Below are positions 1 to 33,100 of a DNA stretch of 64,000 bases, piece after piece (within the stretch, counting starts at the first letter, position 1; each line of letters starts with the position of its first letter). The notes beneath the pieces are model-generated. The model saw nothing but the letters and a program-made list of their open reading frames with translations, was not told the origin of the DNA and did not search any database. The stretch spans positions 30,338 through 94,337 of the forward strand of contig CAZFGK010000003.1 in assembly GCA_964518635.1 (NCBI GenBank), given 5' to 3'. A program made the position numbers and the translations under genes. The stretch comes from an uncultured Ignavibacteriales bacterium (GTDB lineage: Bacteria; Zixibacteria; MSB-5A5; GN15; FEB-12).

Positions 1-994
1 CGCCGGCGGAAGCGATTTTCCCCTGGTTTCTGTCTGAAAGCGGAAGGGGTAGCGATGTCCAGACAAGAAAGGCATTGTCGTCATCATCAAACAATCTTCG
101 GTAGCCTGCTCCGAGGGTCAGGTCCGGTCGAAACGAGACTCTATTACTTTGCAATTCGGCCTCACGTGCATCGCGCTCGAATTCGAGAGCAAGCAAGTCA
201 GGATGAGTGGCCAGCAGGCCTTCGAGTGGTACGGTAACCTTTCGATCCAGCCACCATCGGAGTGAGCCGTCGATGGTATCGGGTAGTGAACTTCCTCCCC
301 AGAGAGAAGCCAGCATCTGACGATTTCGGCTAAAATGAGCAGTCTGAGTTTCAAGCTCGATCTCAGCTTCAAACTCCACTTCACGTGCTCTCAAAAGATC
401 GACTTCAGGAACTGCCCCTTCGGCGAATTTATTTGCCGCGACTTCTCGAATGTTTTTCGCGATTGTAACCCCTTCGCGAGTATTATCGAGATAAAGCTCA
501 CTCGCGACTACTCGGTAGTATGCCACGCTGGCTTGAATGAAAAGGTCGAGCAGCGAAGAATGGTAGCTCTGCTCGTACATTTGTATCTCATGCGCTATTG
601 ACTGCTTGTGTATTGAGCGTTTCCCCCACAGCCCAATCTCCTTTTCGATCCCAATCGTAAGCTCACCAATACCGCTAGTTGAGCTGCGACCGAAATTCGC
701 TACTTCAAGACTTACAGTCGGATTTTGACCCTTGCCTGCCTGTATGAGTTTTCCCTGCGCTGCAATCGACGACGCACGAGCGACAAGCAATTCAGGGTGA
801 TTCATCAACACTCGGTTGACAGCCTCTCGCAAACTGAGACCAGTTGCGTTCATTTCAGATGAATCTACTTCTGAAAGAAGTTCACGAAGGAGAACAGGCC
901 GATCATCAATTTCTGAACCGGAAGACTGTCCGAAAGACATCGATCCGAATATCAGTGGACAAAATGTTACACAGAAGAAAAGAATCATTCGCAT
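1..994 (-). CDS. TolC/CzcC-family outer-membrane efflux protein, N-terminal ~331 aa (gene continues past window start)
   Basis: Not on the ORF track because no stop lies inside the window. Manual minus-strand translation from ATG (complement of 992-994) gives MRMILFFCVTFCPLIFGSMSFGQ (signal) ... LSLREAVNRVLMNHPELLVARASSIAAQGKLIQAGKGQNPT ... TSLPLPLSDRNQGKIASAG. This pattern is typical of heavy-metal RND outer membrane factors. Confidence 0.75.
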   Translation of the reverse strand, partial: MRMILFFCVTFCPLIFGSMSFGQSSGSEIDDRPVLLRELLSEVDSSEMNATGLSLREAVNRVLMNHPELLVARASSIAAQGKLIQAGKGQNPTVSLEVANFGRSSTSGIGELTIGIEKEIGLWGKRSIHKQSIAHEIQMYEQSYHSSLLDLFIQASVAYYRVVASELYLDNTREGVTIAKNIREVAANKFAEGAVPEVDLLRAREVEFEAEIELETQTAHFSRNRQMLASLWGGSSLPDTIDGSLRWWLDRKVTVPLEGLLATHPDLLALEFERDAREAELQSNRVSFRPDLTLGAGYRRLFDDDDNAFLVWTSLPLPLSDRNQGKIASAG

Positions 995-1099
995 GCAGAA
1001 ACTCCACTACAGGTTTTGATCGCCTGCTGCCATGCAGACAACGACAAGCACCCACCTGACCTTGATTGTCAGGCGGACTTATAAAGTGTGTGGAGTGAA

Positions 1100-1519
1100 T
1101 CAGCAGCGAGTTGGGATGGGATTTTCAGCGAACTCAGAAAAGTCTGGAGGAGAAATGAGATGAACTTCGTCCGATTGTCCTATCAAGAATTGATAGTTGG
1201 CAAGAGACGAATGAAATTCTACTTGTGCCAAGAAGGGAAATTCAACCTGTGCGGCCTCTAACCGAGAAGCTGCTCGGCCATACGAATCAAGCAATTGGTC
1301 TTGGCAATCGCCGCAATCTGAATCACGTTCAGCCATCTCGGAAGACTTGACTCCGATCATGCTAATCTCTGCGAGACAACAACCGTCTTGTAGTCGCTCA
1401 ACCGAAACTCGGCCGTCGGATTCCACGCAAACGACCAAACCACCCACTGAAAGAAAGCAGGTAGAAAGGAGTTGAATGAATATAAGGAACCAAGCCATCT
1501 GTTTGCTGTAAGCTTTCAC
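1100..1519 (-). CDS. Small Cys-rich signal-anchored protein of unknown function, directly upstream of the czcC-like gene
   Basis: 139-aa ORF with an N-terminal hydrophobic segment (WFLIFIQLLSTCFLSVGGLVV), then VVCVESDGRVSVE, DGCC and DCGDCQD. Same strand as the OMF gene, 105-nt gap. Confidence 0.5.
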   Translation of the reverse strand: MKAYSKQMAWFLIFIQLLSTCFLSVGGLVVCVESDGRVSVERLQDGCCLAEISMIGVKSSEMAERDSDCGDCQDQLLDSYGRAASRLEAAQVEFPFLAQVEFHSSLANYQFLIGQSDEVHLISPPDFSEFAENPIPTRC

Positions 1520-1687
1520 ATCTCAAGTATCGGATAGTTTCAGCAATAAGTAAAGCGGTGCGCAAAACGACAGTCTATCCAGCGTAATGAAGTCCTTGCC
1601 GTTCAATGACTTCTTCTGTGATATGAACAGCCCCGCTATCATTTGAATTTGATCCCTTTGACCGACTAAGCGGCCTGATTTTTTACC

Positions 1688-1719
1688 ACCCAGTTGCGGA
1701 ACTCGTCTCTCCGACCCCG
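1688..1719 (+). repeat. 32-nt direct repeat, copy A (acccagttgcggaactcgtctctccgaccccg)
   Basis: 30/32 identical to copy B at 3349-3380, in the same orientation. Both copies are intergenic. Confidence 0.85.
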
Positions 1720-1757
1720 TTTTTTTCTCAAATTGGTCAGCTCATACCAACCATTCA

Positions 1758-2222
1758 TTGGCTATATTATCTATGAAGAAAGAGAAGCCCACATTGTGGC
1801 TCAGTTTGCAAAGGACTGCCGACACGCATCTGCTTACGGGCTTTGGTCAAGGTGATGGTTGTCGTTGTATGTCATTAAGAATCGTTTCAACGAAATTGCA
1901 GGATGTTATCCGAAGCTATCTGAAGTTAGTGATTGTCGGATTGTTTCTCTTTCCTTCAGTCAGCGGCATCACAGAAAACATAAATCAACATGGATCGTTA
2001 TCTTCATCACGTGTCGACGCTGATCTGGAAGCAAAACTCCGCTCTTCGTCTCCGTTTGACACGGTCACCGTCGACCTAAGTGTCTTTGGGGGTATCGAAG
2101 CGGCCGAGCTGAACAGGATTCTCGACTCCACTTGCACCACTCTTTCCCAACGGCGTCAAAGCGGTGTCCTGATCTTACAGGAAAGAGCGAATAAGTCGCT
2201 TCACTATGAGCAAGTGTTGTGA
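1758..2222 (+). CDS. Hypothetical protein (one predicted TM segment)
   Basis: 154-aa ORF with a TTG start; an alternative ATG lies at 1773 (MKKEKPTLW). No recognisable motif. It sits 72 nt upstream of the permease on the same strand. Confidence 0.3.
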   Translation: MAILSMKKEKPTLWLSLQRTADTHLLTGFGQGDGCRCMSLRIVSTKLQDVIRSYLKLVIVGLFLFPSVSGITENINQHGSLSSSRVDADLEAKLRSSSPFDTVTVDLSVFGGIEAAELNRILDSTCTTLSQRRQSGVLILQERANKSLHYEQVL

Positions 2223-2294
2223 CTAACGCTCTTGCCGCTTTGGATTTATGACTCTTGATCATGTATTCTATCGAAGAATAGGCTTAGCTAGAGA

Positions 2295-3245
2295 GTGCAC
2301 TACTTTACTTTATTTCTGATCGCTCTTGCTTCATTGTTATCAGAAGTCTGGCTTTGGCTGGTGGTAGGATTTCTAATGGCGGGAGTAGTCATAGAATTTG
2401 TGCCGAAAAAAACTGTTGTTAGACATTTTGGTGACAACACGTTCAAGGGGCTTATCAAAGCATCAATAGCCGGGCTTATTGCCTCGACGTGTTCGTGTGG
2501 AGCGATTCCTATGGCAGTCTCACTCCGTCAAAAAGGAGCGAGTACTGCAGTTGCACTTACGTTTTTGTTGGCAACGCCCTGGTCGGGAATACCTCAATTT
2601 CTAGTCTTGAGCAGGTTCTTGGGTGTCGTGAACACAATCGTGATCACGGGATCGGCTTTGTCGGCTTCTTTGATCACGGGAATGGTTTTATCAAGACTGG
2701 AACGACGCAAGCTGATTGAAGGACCGCACGTATCGGCCGTCTTGTGTTGTGGTTGCTCATGCGTTTCTGGAGACAATTGCAACTGTGATGAAAAACATGG
2801 AAAACCATCAGGCAATCGACTCTGGCGGGTGCTTGTCGGGGCGTGGGATAGTTTTCTTGATATCGGTAAGTTCATGGTCATTGGACTTGTTCTTTCTGCC
2901 GCACTTTTGGCATTTGTGCCACACGACATCGTCGGAAAAGTCCTTGGAAGTGGTAACTCTTCGCTGGCAATTCTTCTGGCCGTACCTGTGAGCGCTGTGA
3001 TCGAACTATGCTCTGAAGGATTTAGCATTCTCGCCGGTCAACTTTACGTGATGGGAGCCAGTTTGGGGGTTGTGTTCGTTATGATTATGGTTGGCGTAAC
3101 TACTGACATGACTGAGATATCTATCGTGTGGGGAAAATTCGGCAAGCGGTCAGCGGTTGCATATCTGCTTTGTGCGACCTCTGTGGCGATTGTTATCGCC
3201 TACTTTCTAAACCTTGTTCAGTCGATAATCCAGAGCCACACGTGA
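2295..3245 (+). CDS. Predicted permease of the COG0701/ArsP-like family with a Cys-rich central loop
   Basis: 316 aa, GTG start, polytopic. It has a TCSCGAIP motif in the first half and a second pseudo-repeat half (ELCSEGF). The loop CCGCSCVSGDNCNCDEKH contains six Cys. Confidence 0.65.
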   Translation: MHYFTLFLIALASLLSEVWLWLVVGFLMAGVVIEFVPKKTVVRHFGDNTFKGLIKASIAGLIASTCSCGAIPMAVSLRQKGASTAVALTFLLATPWSGIPQFLVLSRFLGVVNTIVITGSALSASLITGMVLSRLERRKLIEGPHVSAVLCCGCSCVSGDNCNCDEKHGKPSGNRLWRVLVGAWDSFLDIGKFMVIGLVLSAALLAFVPHDIVGKVLGSGNSSLAILLAVPVSAVIELCSEGFSILAGQLYVMGASLGVVFVMIMVGVTTDMTEISIVWGKFGKRSAVAYLLCATSVAIVIAYFLNLVQSIIQSHT

Positions 3246-3348
3246 TGCTAGCGTACGTTCTCGCATTGAGTTACAAGGATTGGCACACTAACTGAATCGA
3301 GCAGGGGAACTTGCTCGAACCCGCCTTCATGCCGCTGCTCCACTAATA

Positions 3349-3380
3349 ACCCAGTTGCGAAACTCGTCTCTACGACCCCG
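3349..3380 (+). repeat. 32-nt direct repeat, copy B (acccagttgcgaaactcgtctctacgaccccg)
   Basis: 30/32 identical to copy A at 1688-1719. It lies between the permease stop and the integrase stop. Confidence 0.85.
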
Positions 3381-3451
3381 CTCCATGGAAAAAACCGGCG
3401 TGTTGCCCGAGTCTATGCGGCATTCACGAAATGCTCTATCAGGTAACCAAA

Positions 3452-3489
3452 GGTTCTACTCTTGTCCGCTTCGGGGAACCATTTTTTTT
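3452..3489 (+). terminator. Possible intrinsic terminator of the permease transcript
   Basis: Imperfect hairpin ggttc...gaacc (3452-3480) followed by an 8-T run (3482-3489). The stem is weak. Confidence 0.35.
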
Positions 3490-3526
3490 GCAGTATCAAA
3501 TTCCTGAATGATGCATTGGCCTCGAC

Positions 3527-4453
3527 TCAAATGCGAAGCCCAGCCGCTGGACTATATTTTTCGTACGCTACGTTGAGGTCATCTGTCGAAAGATGCACGT
3601 ACCGTTGCGTTACTGTAAGAGACGAGTGTCCGAGTATCTTCTGTAAAACTGCGGGATTCCCACCCATGCGAATGAACTGCGACGCGCTACTGTGTCTGAC
3701 GAGATGCGGGTGTAAGTAAATCCCTACTCGTTTGCCAGCTATCGAGAAGATGCGATGCCCTCGCCGTGGATCAATTTTGCCGCCTGTTCGATTGGCAAAG
3801 AGCAACTCAGCCTTGTTCCCTGCCCGGTACTTGAGAATGTAGGTATGAATTGCTTTTGCGGTACGGTCTGATATCGGCGCAATTCGTTCTTTCCTGCCTT
3901 TGCCGAACACTTTGACCAAACGTGAGCGGAGATCAACATCTTCAATTTTGAGACTCAAAAGTTCGTTCAGGCGCAACATTGCATCATACATTAGGAGAAT
4001 CATGCAATAGGAGCGAGCACCATAGCGCGTGGCGCGATTGAGTCGACTGAGGACGCAGCTCATCTGCTCTTGACTGAGCACTGCTTTAACTTTTTGCTCT
4101 GCTCGTACGAGCGAAATTTTCGCTGTCGGATCGGACTTGATGAGTCCCTCGCTCAATAGATGCTTATAGAACACTTTGAAGACGCGAATGCGTCCATTGA
4201 CAGTCGCGGCGGAGACTGAATCGAGAATACTCATGAGATATGCTTGGAGATCGCGCTGTGTCAGTTCCTGCACTCCCTTGTGAAGATTCGCGCAGTACTT
4301 CACCAAATACGCTAATCGTTCAGCGTAGCATTTGAGCGTTGACGGTGTGAGATTTTTCACACGACAAGCAAATGCAAAACTCTCTAGAAGTTCGCGCCCC
4401 ACTCCAGAAGTGTCGGCGTATTCCGCAACGTTCTTGAATGACCATTGTGTCAT
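3527..4453 (-). CDS. Tyrosine recombinase / phage-type integrase (XerC/XerD-like)
   Basis: C-terminal catalytic motifs LHPHLVRHSSASQFIRMGG and LGHSSLTVTQRYVHL, plus an N-terminal SAM-like core-binding domain. I place the start at ATG 4453 (MTQWSF), which has GGAGG 7 nt upstream; the ORF track extends it to 4471. Confidence 0.9.
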   Translation of the reverse strand: MTQWSFKNVAEYADTSGVGRELLESFAFACRVKNLTPSTLKCYAERLAYLVKYCANLHKGVQELTQRDLQAYLMSILDSVSAATVNGRIRVFKVFYKHLLSEGLIKSDPTAKISLVRAEQKVKAVLSQEQMSCVLSRLNRATRYGARSYCMILLMYDAMLRLNELLSLKIEDVDLRSRLVKVFGKGRKERIAPISDRTAKAIHTYILKYRAGNKAELLFANRTGGKIDPRRGHRIFSIAGKRVGIYLHPHLVRHSSASQFIRMGGNPAVLQKILGHSSLTVTQRYVHLSTDDLNVAYEKYSPAAGLRI

Positions 4454-4567
4454 CAGGTGGCCTCCATGCACTCAATTTGGTCAATTACCTGACCGGTTTT
4501 GGCACTTGTGGCACCTGATAACTTGTTGAACTGGAATTACTTAGCGAAGTTATTGTCCGATTAAATG

Positions 4568-4640
4568 CTCCCCCGGCAGGACTCGAACCTGCGACCCGCT
4601 GATTAACAGTCAGCTGCTCTACCGGCTGAGCTACAGGGGA
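4568..4640 (-). tRNA. tRNA-Asn (anticodon GUU)
   Basis: Hand-folded 73-nt cloverleaf: acceptor UCCCCUG/CGGGGGA, D arm GCUC-AGCCGGUA-GAGC, anticodon arm GCUGA-CUGUUAA-UCAGC, T arm GCAGG-UUCGAGU-CCUGC, discriminator G. CCA is not encoded. Confidence 0.92.
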
Positions 4641-4974
4641 GTGTAGAATTGGCGATTGGCTGCGCCAGACGGCTGTCTGTCACAGAGTCGGTAAAATAGC
4701 CCAAGAGCTTCACCTGTCAACGGGCATTTCTTCCCTCCTCCCGATTCCCTGCTCCACTCTCGCTCTCCTTTCCTAATCCCTTGTCATTCAATCGAAAAGT
4801 TGCCTCCACAAATCCAAATGCGGTGGGTTCGGCTGAGAAGACAACCCACCCCCGACTCGCCAAAGGTGAAAGCTTGCTAACGCCCGCCGCAAATTCGGAA
4901 CAAATCGGAAAAGGGACTCGTAGAACCAGACAGTTACCATTGCCCCATTCAATTGAATGGAAAGGAGCCAAACT

Positions 4975-6060
4975 ATGACTGCCCGATCTGCTTTACGCAC
5001 CCTTACCCTTCCCGTCGCCACTTTCGCCCTGCTCGGCTTCGTCCTGCTCGGGGACAGCCCCTCCGCCAAGCCGAAACGGCATTCCAATTGGGGGGATGTC
5101 TATCTCGGGGTCTATACCCAGTCGGTCGACAAGGAGTTGGCCACTACGTTCAAGCTCTCCGTAGATCGCGGAGCTATTGTCAATGAAGTCGAACCGGATT
5201 CCCCAGCCGACAAGGCCGGAATCAAAGAGGATGATGTCATCACCTCTATCAATGGCCATGAAATCTATGATGAGGATGACCTTGTTGACGAAATCCAGGC
5301 ATTCGATGTCGGTGATCGGGTCAAAGTGACGCTTGTTCGTGACGGGAAGACGATGACGGTCGATGCCGAACTAGATGAACGTGCAGAGAATGAATCGATC
5401 AATCGCTCACTTCGTGGGCTCGCTCGCCTGGATGAACTTCGCGCATTGCAACATCCGAATATCGGTACCCCGGGTGGACATGCTCCGCGCGCCTACGCAT
5501 GGAGCGGAGACCAACTTCGTGAACTGGAAATGCCCGGCTACATTGGAATTTCCTATTCAGACCTCACCGACCAGCTTGCCACTCATTTTGGTATCAACGG
5601 AGACGGGGCGATGGTGACCGAAGTGCATGAAAAGACCCCCGCTGAAAAAGCCGGACTCAAGGCAGGCGACATTATTACCAAGGTTGATGATGCCTCAATC
5701 TCCTCCCGGAATTCCCTCTCTGAACTAATTAGCGATTTCCACGTTGGGGATACGGCAAAATTGACGGTCGTACGGGACAAGAAGACGATGACACTTCCGG
5801 TGATTGTCGATGAACGGGATGACGGACTCTTTGGCTATTCTTCCGGCTCCCTTCGTAACACGTTGCGTGGGTCGGCCCGTCAGATGGATAAGACGAAGCG
5901 GGAACTTGATGCCGCACTCCGAGCGCAGGAGCGGACGCGCGGACTTCGCCACGGTGACGATGCCGGTATCTTCGACTCTGAGGAATACAAAGCAGAGATG
6001 GATGCGCTTAAGCGTGAGCTGGAACTGCTTCGCGAAGAGCTGAAATCGATGCGGAAATAG
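4975..6060 (+). CDS. Exported tandem-PDZ protein without a protease domain, C-terminal coiled coil
   Basis: Start placed at ATG 4975 (AAAGGAG upstream). Signal peptide MTARSALRTLTLPVATFALLGFVLLG. Two DegP-type PDZ domains (SPADKAGIKEDDVITSING and TPAEKAGLKAGDIITKVD). The charged tail is EYKAEMDALKRELELLREELKSMRK. Confidence 0.8.
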   Translation: MTARSALRTLTLPVATFALLGFVLLGDSPSAKPKRHSNWGDVYLGVYTQSVDKELATTFKLSVDRGAIVNEVEPDSPADKAGIKEDDVITSINGHEIYDEDDLVDEIQAFDVGDRVKVTLVRDGKTMTVDAELDERAENESINRSLRGLARLDELRALQHPNIGTPGGHAPRAYAWSGDQLRELEMPGYIGISYSDLTDQLATHFGINGDGAMVTEVHEKTPAEKAGLKAGDIITKVDDASISSRNSLSELISDFHVGDTAKLTVVRDKKTMTLPVIVDERDDGLFGYSSGSLRNTLRGSARQMDKTKRELDAALRAQERTRGLRHGDDAGIFDSEEYKAEMDALKRELELLREELKSMRK

Positions 6061-6096
6061 CACTACAAATTCTTCTTCGTTAGGCATTGAATAAGG

Positions 6097-6133
6097 AAAC
6101 GGGACAGCAGATGCTGCCCCGTTTTCTTCTTTC
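6097..6133 (+). terminator. Rho-independent terminator after the PDZ gene
   Basis: aaacgggacagc-agat-gctgccccgttt forms an 11-bp stem with one mismatch, followed by a T-rich tail (ttcttctttc). Confidence 0.75.
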
Positions 6134-6212
6134 GGGGGGAAGAGATCATCTGTTCTGAGATCGGGGGGTTGAAGATTGCGGGGGTGATGATCTGAGTGTA
6201 TATCAGAGCCGC

Positions 6213-7184
6213 ATGCCGAATATATCAGTTGAACAGCTCTATCTCTCTCGCATCAAGGATCTTGAACTGACGCTGTTGTCCTCCCCGGCCAGCGGGATGC
6301 AAAGGCAGATCACTAATCCGGAACTACATCGCCCCGGGCTTGCCCTTGCCGGTTTCTTCGAACGATTCCCCAAGAAGCGGATTCAGATATTCGGTGAGAC
6401 TGAGATTCATTATCTCAATACCCTTTCGCCAGAGCAGCTCCTGATCATCGCAGAGAAGTATCTGGGGAGCGATATTCCACTGGTCTTCATCTCCAAATCG
6501 ATCACCCCGCCGCTCCCCTTTCTTGCTGCGGCGGAACGTCATGGGGTAGTAGTGATCTCCAGTCGGCTGACTACGACCAACCTCCAGGATCGACTCGGAA
6601 AGTTCCTCGATCATCATTTTGCCCCAGTGACAAATGTGCATGGGACTCTTGTTGATGTCTACGGAGTCGGCTTGCTCTATACCGGGAAATCGGGGATCGG
6701 AAAGTCGGAGGTCGCCCTTGATCTTGTCGAGCGTGGGCATCGCCTGGTTGCGGATGATGTCGTCAAGATCACCCGAACTGCCCCGGACGTGATCATCGGG
6801 ACCGGATCGGAGCTTTTGGGGCATCATATGGAGATCCGGGGGGTGGGGATCATCGATGTCGAGGCCCTCTTTGGTATTCGCGCGGTTCGACTGCAAAAGC
6901 GTATCGAAGTCGAGGTACACCTGACCATCTGGGATGAGGCGACCGACTACGAGCGACTTGGTTTGGAAGAGAGTCTGACTACGGTGCTGGGGGTGCAAAT
7001 TCCGATCTTGCATGTTCCGATCCAACCGGGGAAGAATATCACCGTCATCTCCGAAGTTATCGCCATGAATCATATGTTGAAAGTCTATGGTCAGAATTCG
7101 GCGGTTGAGTTCTCCCGACGCCTGACCGAACGGCTGAGCCGTCAGACTAATGTGGCCGCCTACCTCGAATCTGATACCGAATAG
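6213..7184 (+). CDS. hprK: HPr kinase/phosphorylase
   Basis: 323 aa, full-length form. Walker A GKSGIGKSEVALDLVERGHRLVADDVV and the signature HMEIRGVGIIDV. Confidence 0.9.
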   Translation: MPNISVEQLYLSRIKDLELTLLSSPASGMQRQITNPELHRPGLALAGFFERFPKKRIQIFGETEIHYLNTLSPEQLLIIAEKYLGSDIPLVFISKSITPPLPFLAAAERHGVVVISSRLTTTNLQDRLGKFLDHHFAPVTNVHGTLVDVYGVGLLYTGKSGIGKSEVALDLVERGHRLVADDVVKITRTAPDVIIGTGSELLGHHMEIRGVGIIDVEALFGIRAVRLQKRIEVEVHLTIWDEATDYERLGLEESLTTVLGVQIPILHVPIQPGKNITVISEVIAMNHMLKVYGQNSAVEFSRRLTERLSRQTNVAAYLESDTE

Positions 7185-7442
7185 CCGAAAAATCGGCCTA
7201 TTCCGGCTCGTTCGTCTTCCCACTTGCCGCCACGTTCTGCGGGTGTATCTTTATGGTTTGCATCAAAATAGAAGATGGCCGCGCGGTTTTGCCGCCAGCC
7301 CGGAACCCGCCCCGCTGTGCGGCATACAAGAGATGCTATGATTCTGAGTTCTATCCTGCGCGATACCTTTTTGGGCCGTATCGGAAAACATTCCGCCCGT
7401 TCATTCCAGCGATCGATATCACAGTCGAACCGCAATTTTTGG

Positions 7443-9158
7443 ATGGCGCTGCTTCTCCTGGTTGCAAGCACATCTCTGTTCGTCGGTTGCAGTTCAAAAC
7501 CAGGGGATACGGTGCTGGCGAAAGTTGGTGATCATGAGATCACCGTCGCCGAAATGGATGACTATTCACGCGATATTTCGTTCGACAACGCGACTTTTGA
7601 TCAGGAGCTTGCCGGGAAACGTCAGATTCTGGATACCCTGATCTACAAGCGACTCCTGATTCAGGGGGCATATGAAAAAGGGGTGCAGAATATAGAGGAG
7701 GTCAGCCGTGCCGTACTCAACAGTCGCAATCAGTTTCTGATCGATATTCTCTATCAGGAAAAAGTAAGTTCGAAGCTGAATATCACAGCCCAAGAGTTGC
7801 GTGACTTCTGGGAGAAAATGGCTGAGGTGATTCACACGCAGCAGATTGTGCTCTCGACCAAAGATTCCGCAGAAATGATACTGGGACGTTTACAGGCGGG
7901 TGAGAATTTCGAACAGCTTGCATATGACTTTTCAATCGATCCGAATGTGAAGCGCACCCGTGGAGATATGGGTTTTATTCAGTGGGGGGCACTCTCAAGT
8001 GAACTTCAGAATGCGCTCTTCTCGATGAAAGTCGGGGAAGTCTCCCCTCCTCTCAAGTCAAGTATTGGCTACTATCATATATTGCGAGTGCTGGAAAAAA
8101 GACCAAACAGCAACCGTCGTCAGCCAGAAGAGATGAAAGAGGAGCTGTATGGCAGTGTCTTCAATCGTAAAGCCGGAGAGTTAATGGAAGCGTACTTCAA
8201 AGAGATGCGCACCACTTACAAGCTGACGATCGACACTGCGACCATTCAGTACCTGCTGGTCAAGCGAAGCAATATGTATCCGCCGCAAATTCTTGCCTCA
8301 TTGCCGAAATCGACCTTCGATTTGGCTCAGCTTGATCGAAATGAGAAAGAGTTGAAGATGGCAAGCTGGACCGGCGGACAGGTTTCAGTGAGTGAGTATT
8401 TTACCCTCGCCGATGAGTCCGGTGTACCGGCGCAGTATCGTCCTGATCTTGATCAGTATGATTCTCTGGCTTCATTCATGTTTGATATCAAACGAAATGA
8501 CTTTCTCGTGGCCGAAGCTCTCAAGCTCGGTCTGGATAAGCATCCCGATTTTGTACGTCGAATCAAGTTCATGAAAGAACTGACTATGGCAGAGGTGATG
8601 AGCAATGACTCACTGACTGTCGGACTCGAAGTGACTGATCAAATGGCACGTGAGTTTTATGAAAAGAATTCCCGGATGTTCACACGGCCGGCTCGAATTC
8701 GTGTCTACGAAATCCTGACCTCCGATCAGAGTCTCGCCGCCCGACTTGCTCGTGAGATCAAATCACTCCCAGACTTTTCAGCAAGAGCAATTCAATACAC
8801 CGAGCGTGATACCAGACGTGGCACCAATGGCGATCTGAATTATATCGAATCTCGCACCATGCCGGATCTTTTTGCTGCTGCGCAGCAGGTGGCAATCGGA
8901 GAAATCGGCGGGCCAATTCCGAATGAAGGAAAATTTTCGGTTTTCTATGTCGTCGACAAACTTCCGCAGGAGACCATCGATTATCTCGGTGTGAAACGGG
9001 ATATCGTCGCACAGTTGGTTGACACCGTGCGCAACCAAACCGCTCGTAACTGGATTGCTGATCAACGAGCAAAGAAAAAGATCGAAGTCTTTGAAGAGAA
9101 TGTCCGAAAGGCAGTCCTTGACCGACGCACAAAATATGAGGCCGCGCGTGCAATCTAA
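7443..9158 (+). CDS. Lipoprotein peptidyl-prolyl isomerase, parvulin type (PpiD/PrsA/SurA-like chaperone)
   Basis: The likely true start is MALLLLVASTSLFVGC (lipobox FVGC) at 7443; the ORF track start at 7275 adds a non-signal extension. Parvulin domain: IHTQQIVL...GDMGFIQWG...GYYHILRVLEKR. Confidence 0.8.
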   Translation: MALLLLVASTSLFVGCSSKPGDTVLAKVGDHEITVAEMDDYSRDISFDNATFDQELAGKRQILDTLIYKRLLIQGAYEKGVQNIEEVSRAVLNSRNQFLIDILYQEKVSSKLNITAQELRDFWEKMAEVIHTQQIVLSTKDSAEMILGRLQAGENFEQLAYDFSIDPNVKRTRGDMGFIQWGALSSELQNALFSMKVGEVSPPLKSSIGYYHILRVLEKRPNSNRRQPEEMKEELYGSVFNRKAGELMEAYFKEMRTTYKLTIDTATIQYLLVKRSNMYPPQILASLPKSTFDLAQLDRNEKELKMASWTGGQVSVSEYFTLADESGVPAQYRPDLDQYDSLASFMFDIKRNDFLVAEALKLGLDKHPDFVRRIKFMKELTMAEVMSNDSLTVGLEVTDQMAREFYEKNSRMFTRPARIRVYEILTSDQSLAARLAREIKSLPDFSARAIQYTERDTRRGTNGDLNYIESRTMPDLFAAAQQVAIGEIGGPIPNEGKFSVFYVVDKLPQETIDYLGVKRDIVAQLVDTVRNQTARNWIADQRAKKKIEVFEENVRKAVLDRRTKYEAARAI

Positions 9159-21471: not shown

Positions 21472-21831
21472 GGGGGTGTCAGGGTTCGACGGGTATGGTT
21501 CGGGGTTGCGGGCGTGTCGGGGATGTTCGGTAGCCCCGTTACCAAGTTCCGAACAAACAGTAATCGGCAACGATTACGCCATGGCTGCCTAGTTAATACC
21601 TAGCGCAACCCGTCCCGCCTGAACTCTGCCCTCGAGGTCAGGGTCGGGGCGACGCAATTGAGGGATCGGTCCTGCGACGTCCGTGAGCAGGACTTAAACA
21701 TACGGGCTGGCTACTGCGGACGCCTGTCGATCGGCAGTCGTGGTAGCGAGAACTCAATAGAACGACTACACACGTAGAACGCTGCCTGCAAATCTATTCG
21801 GACGGGGGTTCGATTCCCCCCACCTCCACCA
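21472..21831 (+). ncRNA. ssrA: tmRNA (one-piece)
   Basis: 5' GGGGGUGUCAGGGUUCGACGGG pairs with 3' CACCUCC-A-CCA, including the G3:U70 pair. T arm: GGACGGGGGUUCGAUUCCCCC. The internal tag frame ends ...GNDYAMAA followed by UAG at 21590-21592. Confidence 0.93.
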
Positions 21832-30135: not shown

Positions 30136-33100
30136 CTACTGACAATTCGCCAACGGCGCAAAGCTGATAAACAAATGATCAACCAAAGCGGTCAGATCAC
30201 CGATATCAATGCCCGGATTGCCGTCGCAGTTGCCTTCAGACGCACAGCACAACGGCGTAAAGCTGATAAACAGGTGATCAACCAGAATAGTCAGATCAGC
30301 AATGTCGACACTCTGAGTTCCGTCACAGTCCGCATTGCCAGTTGTACCCACACAACATCCGAGCGTCGCAATATACAATGCACTCGCGATTGAGAATGGA
30401 TTGTCGCCAAATGCCACTCGCCAGTAATAAACTGAATCAGCCGCCAACGGAATCGGAATCTGAAATGCCGGAGATGCCAGCCCAAACGAATCAATAAACG
30501 TCGTGCGGAAGTCGTGATAGGCACTGAGCTGAATGCGATAGGTGATCGCTAATGCTCGCTGTGGTGCGTGATCAGTATCCCAGCTCAGATTTGGCTGGGC
30601 CGTATTGACTGGCACACCACTGCCGGGAGTGGTCTTGTCCGGATACTGAAATGGGAAGTGGACCGTATCGCCGGGGTTGGTACTCCCCGGATTGTAGTTC
30701 TGAAACACCGTGCGTTCCTGAAACCCGTTGATCCCAATACCGACATCAAGACGAACTGGACCCATTGGCGCGGGACGAAAACCGGCGGTAATATCATACT
30801 CGCCGTCAATGAGATTATAGTTGAAGGCGCGATCATCAAGCTGACCATTGACATTGAAATCAACGCGCCCATAGTCTGAACCGGCAATCGACTGAAGATT
30901 GTCTGAGACAATCAGGCCGTTCGGATCGACAATCGACAGGAAGGCATTGTCAAATGCGGTCACGACCATCTCTTCGGGGAGGATTGCGCCTGCTGCTGCC
31001 TGATTGATGGCGAGGATGATACTATTCCCGCCAGTACCGCCAGCAACAAGGTCGATATTCCCATTTCTATCAAGATCACCACCGGATAAGCCATACAGTG
31101 CTCCAGATCCGGTCCCGAGATCGATCGTCGTTTCGAACGTAAACGTTCCGGTATTGTCACCGCGGTAGATCACCAGATCGCGTGTGTCGGCAGTAATGAT
31201 GGTGATATCCAGATCATTATCGAGGTCGATATCGCTGACGGTAAAGTTCAGTCCACGTCCGGTGATACGAATGGTATCACTTGGTGTCACTGTACCAAGA
31301 CCGTTTCCAAGGGCGGCCGTGACGATGGTCGTGTCATTTGCACCAGTGCTGTTGCCCGCGATGGTGACGATATCTGCCTTCCCATCCTGATTGAGATCGA
31401 CAGAGCTCCGGACGCGAGTGAAATCGGTCACGAATGGTCGGAGCTGAATTTCGCCGGTACGAGTGAAGACTCCTGAACCGTTATTGGTATAGACAACGGC
31501 TGAATCTACGCGTGTCACGACGATATCGTCGATGTAGTCATTGTTGAAATCAGCCACATCGACATCGTCAAAGCTGAACGGAAGAGTAGTCGGAGCAGCA
31601 TAGCCACCGACTCCATCACCGAAGATGAGTCTGTTTTGCGAGAGAATCAGATCGAGATCGGAGCCGCTGTTGAAATAGCCACTCGCGACCGACGGAAACT
31701 GTGTGCTCGCAGCATCGAATACTTCTCGCGCAAGTGGCAACGAACTGACACTGAAATTCCGGCTGCCGAGATTGAGCAGCGTGTAGAGCTGAGTCGAGGT
31801 TCGCGCCATAATATCCAGCAGCGTGTCATTATTCAGATAGTCGATAGTAATATCCGCGCGCTGAATGTCTGCAAGCGCGATCGGTGATTCAAGGGTGCCA
31901 TCCGGTTTGCCGAAGGAAACAAACAGAGAGTCAGCGGTCGTGCCGGTGAAGACAAAATCCTGACGGTTGTCGCGATCCAGATCGGCCTCTTCAATGAAAA
32001 AGACATCGGCAGTGTCGGCGGTAGGTGTGACAGAAAAGGAAGGGATTCTCACTTGCACGCATTGAGAGAACTCGGAAGTATTTCCTTCGCTGTCTGTCGC
32101 CGTTGAAGTGATAAACGCACCTATTGATACTTCAGAAGGAACAATCACTTCAAAGGTAACATCCCCACTGCCGTTTGTTGACTGCAGCGAACTAAGAAGA
32201 GGAGTTTCCCCTTCGCCGTAGCCAGATGAGTCACAAACGGAGTTTGAGTAGAAGAATAGGCGGTAGGTCTGCGATGCCTCGCTGTTCAGTTTGCCGTAGA
32301 GATGAGTCGAACCGCCGATAACAATCGCGCTATCGAGTATCGGATAGTTCTGCTGGTCGTTTTCCCCGCTGTCGATGTCAAGAAGATCGTTGGCAGTTGG
32401 TACACCAAATGTTGCAAGAGAAATCCCAAGCAAACCATTAGAGTGAATCGAGTTATTTTGTATGCGAATGGACTTTCGATCTGGTCCCGCTGCAAATCCA
32501 ATCCCGTTTCTTTGGGCATTCATGATTGTATTACCGGAGTCTGTTGTGAGTCCGCCGATGTGTATTGTATCCGCACTCTGGACAAATTTGAAACCAAAGT
32601 CAGACTCAAATCCAGGATCTAGGGCTCCATTGGATCCAATGATATTTCCGATTATGCGAATGTGTCGAGGTGGTCGTAGTGCCGAGCTGCCAATCTGTAT
32701 AGCTGGAGAGAAGGTATCACCAACTATGAAGTTTCTTTGAGATTCCAGTGGTCCGCCGACGATTAGGTCTCTCGCTCCCTTGATATCAAGGCCTGGCCCT
32801 CCATTTGAAAGCTGTGATTCCATCTCTCGATCCATGCCGATGATGTTGCCGTGAAAGATACAACCTGAACCACTGTCTGCAACATATACCCCTGAACTTG
32901 CATTTGCCGCGAACACATTTCGTCGGTCTGATCCCGGAGTTCCGATTTCGCAACCTCTTGCATCTACATAAATTCCATAGAATGTATTTCCGCGAGCAGT
33001 CGTTCCGGTGGGATCGGTCCCTACGTAGCAACCAGTGACAATCGAACTATCCGCATTTTGGGTGAGATGAATGCCAAAGAATCCGTTGCTCGACACGACG

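Follow-up and report, generated by a model that had tools for sequence, protein, structure and literature searches.

Genomic islands and integrative mobilizable elements (IMEs) that are anchored at tRNA genes carry a tyrosine integrase gene directly downstream of the tRNA 3′ end, together with a variable, adaptive cargo. In cis-mobilizable elements (CIMEs), which have no integrase of their own, the flanking repeats are copies of the attachment (att) core of the neighbouring element. Here we describe a locus of this general kind in the Zixibacteria. The DNA analysed, referred to as the window, is a 64,000-nucleotide (nt) stretch of contig CAZFGK010000003.1 (assembly GCA_964518635.1) from an uncultured bacterium of this phylum; the islet of interest occupies positions 1-4640, and coordinates are on the scale of the window unless another locus is named (related loci and proteins carry L and P numbers). 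The islet consists of a tRNA-Asn gene, an integrase gene and metal-efflux genes, with two 32-nt direct repeats on either side of a permease gene. On the sequence comparisons reported below, positions 1-4566 are very probably the tRNA-proximal part of a mobile element integrated into a Zixibacteria chromosome.

The islet appears to work like an ordinary tRNA-anchored genomic island or IME that has undergone accretion and decay. As in such elements, the integrase gene directly follows a tRNA 3′ end, relatives lack the element at this site, the cargo varies and has an adaptive role (metal efflux), and the closest elements carry genes for relaxase-like Replic_Relax and coupling proteins; unlike in such elements, the distal att repeat and the mobilisation genes of the islet are not visible in the window. 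Resemblance to CIMEs and to tandem accretion (ICEberg 2.0) lies in an integrase-less segment between direct repeats, next to an integrase-bearing element. Unlike those of CIMEs, however, the repeats match a tRNA 3′ end at only 53-59%, and the segment holds a gene remnant. No integrase lies between the repeats, and their att match of 17-18/32 is significant in a fixed register and invisible to profiles. The element family is specific to Zixibacteria, and a literature search found no paper describing it. The locus documents a tRNA-targeting integrative element family in a phylum known almost entirely from metagenome-assembled genomes. The layout of this family is recognisable: a tRNA gene, an integrase gene, a variable cargo slot and a Replic_Relax/coupling-protein mobilisation module. 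Metal-efflux genes are seen to move as modules between such contexts, and the repeat pair is a candidate for the route of cargo exchange in the slot.

The integrase module at tRNA-Asn

The integrase gene is faced by the 3′ end of the tRNA-Asn gene (GCTGACTGTTAATCAGCGGGTCGCAGGTTCGAGTCCTGCCGGGGGAG); the two lie on the same strand, with the start codon (ATG at 4453) 114 nt away from position 4567, where the tRNA gene ends. This geometry had been noted in the initial annotation, as a tRNA-Asn(GUU) 3′ end facing the start of a tyrosine recombinase gene 114 nt away, and was borne out by ARAGORN, Rfam and the open reading frames (ORFs). The predicted protein matched Phage_integrase (Pfam, 2.9e-37) together with an N-terminal SAM-like domain. 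Its scores fell below all of the NCBIfam cut-offs considered, namely those for XerC (188 against 335 bits), XerD (169 against 330 bits) and the integron integrase TIGR02249 (74 against 265 bits, the match covering only the N-terminal part of the protein). Escherichia coli XerD was the best solved relative (2e-28), and each of its six catalytic residues (R148, K172, H244, R247, H270 and Y279) aligns with an identical residue in the integrase.

Comparison with the related locus L002 delimits the module. The tRNA gene is 100% identical between the two loci, the spacer between tRNA and integrase gene 92%, the integrase gene 94.4% and the 40 nt after its stop codon (3487-3526) 90%; left of 3487 identity drops to the random level (about 33%), and the cargo of L002 is different. 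The chromosomal non-coding flank at 4641-4970 is 75.6% identical. Because the module is 90-94.4% identical to L002 against 75.6% for this flank, it is younger than the surrounding chromosome. The two integrases share about 98% protein identity, and 44 of the 52 nucleotide differences between their genes fall at third codon positions, which indicates that the integrase is under purifying selection.

The occupancy of the site was compared across 80 Zixibacteria loci around HprK that carry the PDZ-HprK-PpiC flank. The gene order tRNA-Asn (minus strand), PDZ protein, HprK, PpiC is widely kept among them, with the tRNA-Asn gene visible in 45. Beside this flank, all 80 lack an intact integrase as well as the permease and the outer-membrane factor. 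Of the loci, 22 extend 3 kb or more leftwards from the tRNA; their left-flank genes bear essentially no relation to each other and in some loci encode giant surface proteins. Large serine recombinases occur within 5 kb of the tRNA in three loci, abutting it in L042 and lying 2-3 kb off in L025 and L036, while L018 retains a 53-aa N-terminal integrase remnant (8303-8461) left of tRNA-Asn. Because left flanks are unrelated among relatives with a conserved right flank, the left side of tRNA-Asn is a phylum-wide integration hot spot for unrelated recombinases and not core synteny; the invariant core synteny that the initial annotation had named as the counter-case is not seen. Its broader claim of a tRNA-anchored integrase islet with metal-efflux cargo is supported by these 80 relatives, as well as by the geometry of the integrase family described next. 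The element at tRNA-Asn was inserted by an intact integrase whose family targets tRNA 3′ ends, and its variable cargo slot starts about 40 nt after the integrase stop codon.

Related elements

Relatives of the integrase come from Candidatus Zixiibacteriota and are 45-98% identical to it. For seven related integrase loci the sequence on the tRNA-proximal side was readable. Six of these integrase genes begin about 80-110 nt beyond a tRNA 3′ end; only the 75%-identical integrase of L003 differs, no tRNA being present upstream of it. The tRNA concerned is Asn in the window and in L002, probably Asn in L093 (where a partial tRNA 3′ end is present), Lys-CTT in L004 and L095, probably Lys in L096 (again a partial 3′ end) and Met for a second integrase of L003, a 40%-identical paralogue. 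The three closest elements (L002, L003 and L093) share a conserved module made of a 169-176-aa protein (hyp169), Replic_Relax and a TraG/TrwB-like coupling protein, the last being present where the contig extends far enough; protein identity across elements is 59-72%. Between the integrase gene and this hyp169/Replic_Relax module lie no gene in L002, one in L093 and four in L003. Given the conserved mobilisation module and this varying number of intervening genes, the integrase family looks like a group of IMEs with a variable cargo slot right after the integrase gene.

Several observations on these loci bear on the history of the family. In L003 (GCA_049290195, JBATNE010000294.1; 2083-6870), where the second integrase adjoins tRNA-Met, a tRNA-Asn 3′ fragment lies 146 nt past the stop codon of this integrase and a second, more decayed fragment 1767 nt beyond. 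Each fragment starts an alignable arm of about 650 nt, with a mean column identity of about 72% over the whole aligned units; the array looks like tandem att relics, and no intact tRNA-Asn is in view. Right after the intact integrase of L093, positions ~1130-1230 translate to a second integrase C-terminal motif (HWFDHAATTHFILHGGSPALLQRIMGHTSPVV), which has the look of a decayed integrase remnant, a hint of serial integration in the family. L002, with its tRNA-Asn, integrase and Replic_Relax genes, and L099, with 94%-identical czcCBA genes, both come from Joint Genome Institute (JGI) metagenome 3300038829, and in that population the czc genes may belong to the same element, farther from the integrase gene. 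Logan contigs bearing integrases of this family (L092, L093, L094, L096 and L097) start within the 3′ half of the tRNA gene, 137-152 nt before the integrase gene; L092 begins at window position 4604, and the flanking contig L001 ends at 4594. Both L001 and L092 are 100% identical contigs from SRR12822863. A reading of these contig breaks as a sign of a duplicated att segment was set aside, as tRNA-Asn cores are conserved across co-occurring Zixibacteria; they are probably assembly breaks at the shared cores.

Mosaic structure and cargo genes

The islet is a three-part mosaic of a czc module, a window-specific segment and the integrase module (Table 1). The alignment to the czc module spans 1-1562 in L098 and 1-1096 in L099. 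In L098, homology stops about 64 nt upstream of the gene for the small Cys-rich protein and gives way to a different divergent operon. The segment between the two shared modules found no match in the plasmid collection searched.

Table 1 Features of the islet (window coordinates)
Feature	Position	Strand	Basis
czc module (mosaic part)	1-1562	-	L098 and L099 at 93.5-94.3% nucleotide identity, neighbouring genes different
CzcC-type outer-membrane factor, first 331 of 440 aa	2-994, off window edge	-	Pfam OEP 2.5e-23
Small Cys-rich protein, 132 aa, first gene of leftward czc operon	1100-1498 (ATG 1498)	-	ORF
Window-specific segment between the two shared modules (mosaic part)	1563-3486		L098 homology ends ~1562; L002 homology ends 3487
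Direct repeat copy 1, ACCCAGTTGCGGAACTCGTCTCTCCGACCCCG	1688-1719	+	
Truncated 5′ fragment of secreted S8 subtilase gene (signal peptide and N-terminal region)	1773-2222	+	Homology
Cys-rich ArsP_1/SO_0444-like putative Cu/Zn efflux permease	2295-3245	+	Pfam ArsP_1 8.2e-34
Direct repeat copy 2, ACCCAGTTGCGAAACTCGTCTCTACGACCCCG	3349-3380	+	
Integrase module: tRNA-integrase spacer, integrase gene, 40 nt past stop (mosaic part)	3487-4566	-	Shared with L002, cargo there different
XerC/D-like tyrosine integrase, intact, 308 aa	3527-4453 (ATG 4453; listed ORF to GTG 4471)	-	Pfam
tRNA-Asn(GTT) gene, predicted integration target (attL side)	4567-4640	-	ARAGORN; Rfam RF00005, 70.4 bits at 4568-4640

The Cys-rich ArsP/COG0701-like permease, the small Cys-rich protein and the CzcC-type outer-membrane factor running off the window edge had all been recognised initially, and Pfam searches and the ORFs confirmed them. 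A protein search located the full 440-aa outer-membrane factor (P0121, 100% identical) on a 140.7-kb NCBI contig. It had been left to see whether czcBA follow: CzcB and then CzcA come after the outer-membrane factor in the close relatives L098 and L099. The small Cys-rich gene, again of 132 aa, is also found upstream of the outer-membrane factor in L098, and its product matched nothing in Pfam or NCBIfam. The permease scored 156 bits (1.4e-45) against the NCBIfam model for SO_0444 Cu/Zn efflux, below the cut-off of 300, and carries a CSC motif (STCSCGAIP), given as the signature of the SO_0444 family in a preprint (bioRxiv 10.1101/2022.07.06.499078); it is related to that family. Identity to its best metagenome relatives is only 57-62%; in L086 such a relative is the last gene of a czcCBA-type operon. 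An exact look-up of the permease protein found none on record.

The ORF at 1773-2222, initially taken for an orphan, is the N-terminal fragment of a gene for a secreted S8 subtilase. Among 1.84 billion representative proteins it matched only itself and two proteins, P0125 and P0126, whose residues 51-128 are 45-52% identical to residues 80-147 of the ORF. Both are S8 subtilases, and P0125 (991 aa) has a Peptidase_S8 domain and a type IX secretion sorting tail. The ORF stops where these homologues run on into the protease domain, homology ending at about nt 2198, and no further piece of a subtilase was found in the window; it is therefore best seen as a truncated gene fragment with a breakpoint near 2198. 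It follows that what lies between the repeats, described before as a two-gene cassette, is a patchwork of a truncated subtilase fragment and a permease gene and no tidy unit. The main practical value of the locus lies in this correction of the annotation, from orphan ORF to gene remnant. Full-length homologues of P0125/P0126, 35-39% identical, occur in L074 (4210-6793) and L077 (4217-6793), about 2 kb left of PDZ-HprK; ARAGORN found no tRNA-Asn in either locus.

The 32-nt repeats

The two repeats are in direct orientation and, as first reported, 30/32 identical (94%) with a period of 1661 nt, a match found in none of 100 shuffles. Copy 2 lies 147 nt past the integrase stop codon. The copies are situated 125 and 106 nt inside the ends of the window-specific segment, copy 1 in a divergent promoter region and copy 2 in a convergent 3′ region with no gene downstream. 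Similarity ends sharply at 32 nt; neither direct nor inverted similarity of the flanks rises above the shuffle level, by which a longer duplication was ruled out.

In the 64 kb of the window, about 2% of the source genome, no other position reaches 22/32 matches to the 32-mer. It is likewise absent from related loci totalling about 1.2 Mb, among them the close relatives L002, L099 and L098, although the last retains the region upstream of the czc operon. Nor was a similar repeat found beside seven other integrases of the family. The 21-base core pattern gave no match in genome, metagenome and viral collections, which returned not even the window's own copies and thus do not contain the source genome. 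The dispersal at many loci that the initial annotation had considered fatal to its proposal was accordingly not seen in the window, in the related loci or in the public collections.

Comparison with other repeat-based systems narrowed the field. A tyrosine recombinase beside promoterless-looking cargo bounded by short repeats recalls integrons, unlike which the locus has an integrase far below the IntI cut-off and repeats lacking an attC-like palindrome; an integron was rejected on that score and on the lack of a dyad or significant fold in the repeats. The recombinase is XerC/D-like, as in Xer/dif and pdif systems, unlike which it falls below the XerC and XerD equivalog cut-offs and is encoded next to a tRNA, at a site where the gene is missing from the 80 relatives. 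Xer/dif sites were rejected because the repeats show no 11-6-11 dyad, the best arm complementarity being 6/11. With repetitive extragenic palindromic (REP)-type repeats the 32-mers share that they are short, intergenic and repeated; unlike these, they are not palindromic and were seen in two copies 1.66 kb apart. With two copies in 64 kb and none in the related loci or the three collections, REP elements were rejected as well. Predicted folds of the repeats gave z-scores of -0.5 to +0.6, which ruled out an RNA structure, and an Rfam search over 1-8000 reported only the tRNA, with no family on the repeats. A promoter or terminator was also discounted, as a sigma-70 type consensus does not lie at the repeats and inspection gave no convincing sigma-54 or extracytoplasmic function (ECF)-type motif. 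Direct repeats around permease homologues in L085-L090 were rejected as counterparts of the 32-mer, being unrelated REP-like hairpins. Those that flank the permease homologues in L087 (3690-3716, 5286-5312 and 6507-6533) and L089 (5799-5839, 9145-9185 and 9229-9269) are dispersed REP-type hairpin repeats of the sequence GGCAGAYGAGGRCRTCTGCCGCCCAC, unrelated to the window 32-mer.

The match of the repeat core to tRNA-Asn at 16 of 24 positions, on which the initial annotation had built, is real but weak: 1.9% of shuffled repeats do as well, and so do 1.7% of random 32-mers from the window. Read in the tRNA sense, a repeat lines up gap-free with precisely the final 32 nt of a tRNA, which run from the variable loop to the discriminator base. 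In this register the copies match the window tRNA-Asn at 17-18/32 positions (53-56%), and a repeat matches the Lys-CTT tRNA of L095, another target of the integrase family, at 19/32; at least 18 matches are found in 39 of 127,938 window 32-mers. When copy 1 was compared in any register with 31 tRNA sequences, its 18/24 was reached by 3/600 shuffles and 1/600 random 32-mers. Genuine att relics, as in L003, keep 40-70 nt of recognisable tRNA-Asn in addition to the alignable arm. A remote att-type ancestry of the repeats is plausible on these alignments, though we would not lean on it. In our reading, the pair arose in one recent event that duplicated a single 32-nt site; two relics that decayed independently are incompatible with copies that are 94% alike and only 53-56% like the tRNA.

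Origin of the islet and its repeats

Our preferred explanation, held as a whole with some reserve, combines an integrated element, a patchwork cargo and a junction origin of the repeats. The cargo slot would have been assembled by at least three joining events and would hold a 1.9-kb window-specific piece, with the subtilase remnant and the SO_0444-type permease gene, as well as a czc operon that is also found elsewhere. A 1.66-kb permease-bearing piece would have entered a spacer of about 264 nt between the integrase and czc modules. This spacer would have held a single copy of the 32-nt sequence, possibly descended from an att-type copy of the tRNA 3′ end, and recombination there would have duplicated the 32-mer as a junction. 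The repeats are probably scars, of junction or att type, left by the insertion through which the permease gene arrived; the specific claim of a junction origin is one that we put forward tentatively. Today the repeats could permit loss of the permease piece through homologous recombination or, less likely, through the integrase, a reaction that is disfavoured because the dyad and the T-loop core are missing. Thirty-two identical bases in the same sense are about the minimum for RecA-dependent recombination.

A number of observations weigh against this explanation. Homologues of the hyp169/Replic_Relax/coupling-protein module are absent from the window, in which only 4.5 kb of the element is visible. 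A distal copy of the tRNA 3′ end (attR) with up to three mismatches is not present anywhere in the window, the element exiting at the left edge, so the distal boundary of the island is unseen and the czc genes could be resident chromosome and not cargo. The G+C content of the islet (0.475-0.489) lies inside the window spread (0.501 ± 0.020) and is as low in about 10% of 1.9-kb windows; its composition is thus not deviant. As to the repeats, copy 2 reaches only 16/24 against the tRNA set, a score matched by 6-12% of controls, and the tRNA profile misses both copies (nhmmer to E = 1000, Rfam to E = 1) because the GGTTCGA T-loop core is missing from them. That core is common to the four fully read tRNA targets of the family, the partial end in L093 reading GGTTCAA. 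The repeats also lack dyad symmetry, their best arm complementarity equalling the mode of random sequences, and have no significant predicted fold. The searchable source sequence is the 64-kb window, with which a low-copy, genome-wide family of the 32-mer remains compatible. Finally, no empty site, deletion junction or circular junction was observed, which speaks equally against an excisable cassette.

The boundary question leads to an alternative in which the foreign DNA is confined to the integrase gene (about 1.1 kb), an integrase-only remnant left by decay. The permease gene, subtilase fragment and czc genes would then be resident in a variable part of the chromosome, and local rearrangement would have produced the repeats along the way. 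Homology to L002 indeed ends 40 nt after the integrase gene, the G+C content is unremarkable, no mobilisation genes are visible in the window, and across the phylum the sequence left of tRNA-Asn is hypervariable. The subtilase fragment, moreover, belongs to a Zixibacteria type: L074 and L077 have full-length homologues near HprK. We nevertheless consider this unlikely, as the czc module recurs, 93.5-96% identical, among different neighbouring genes in other contigs, in the manner of mobile cargo, and the closest elements carry their variable cargo slot at this very position. If instead the 32-mer were a low-copy dispersed intergenic repeat or a binding motif (an operator or untranslated-region element) unrelated to recombination, it would flank the permease gene by coincidence or for regulation. 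With about 2% of the source genome searched, a family of up to about 100 copies is compatible with the data; copy 1 does lie in a divergent promoter region, and permease homologues in L087 and L089 are flanked by dispersed repeats of another kind. That explanation is quite unlikely given that no other copy of at least 22/32 occurs in the window and none in the contigs of L002, L098 and L099 or in public collections. The 32-mer is moreover neither palindromic nor predicted to fold, copy 2 has no downstream gene to regulate in its convergent 3′ region, and L098 has the czc upstream region without it.

The remaining alternatives make the repeats att sites outright. They could be functional pseudo-tRNA att sites for the adjacent integrase, with the permease segment as an excisable and capturable cassette that would resemble a CIME or an integron-like cargo slot on an IME, as would fit their sharp bounds, direct orientation and tRNA-gene sense, their extent over exactly the positions of the last 32 nt of a tRNA, and an integrase that is intact and under apparent purifying selection. 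The spacing of copy 2 from the integrase stop codon (147 nt) also resembles that of the first tRNA-Asn fragment in L003 (146 nt), where the second follows at +1.77 kb. What makes this very unlikely is the lack of dyad symmetry for recombinase binding and of the GGTTCGA core found in the family's targets, the gene remnant in the segment, unlike a clean cassette, and the absence of a similar repeat beside the seven other integrases. The stronger version, in which the integrase still recognises the repeats as pseudo-tRNA attachment sites and the slot is a cassette-capture site that swaps its cargo, is given only a slim chance; if true, an uncultured phylum would have evolved an integron-like function on one of its integrative mobilizable elements. 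The proposal, made in the initial annotation, of two independently decayed attR relics from serial integrations into tRNA-Asn can point to the match of 16/24 to 18/32 with the tRNA 3′ end in the correct orientation and register, and to the tandem att relics known in the element family from L003. It did not hold up well and is highly improbable: independent relics should differ from each other as much as from the tRNA, whereas 94% mutual identity stands against 53-56%, the genuine L003 relics are far clearer, with their 40-70 nt of tRNA-Asn and arms of about 650 nt at about 72% identity, and profile searches do not score the repeats as tRNA-like. Among all of these, the duplication of a single 32-nt site at the junction of the permease piece is the origin that we continue to prefer.

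Other features of the window

Outside the islet, the window carries a transfer-messenger RNA (tmRNA) gene at 21472-21831 on the plus strand, with the tag peptide GNDYAMAA; tmRNA genes are another classic target of islands. Two further direct repeat units of 80 nt, 78% identical and 99 nt apart, lie at 30151-30329 and are probably an internal repeat of a coding sequence.

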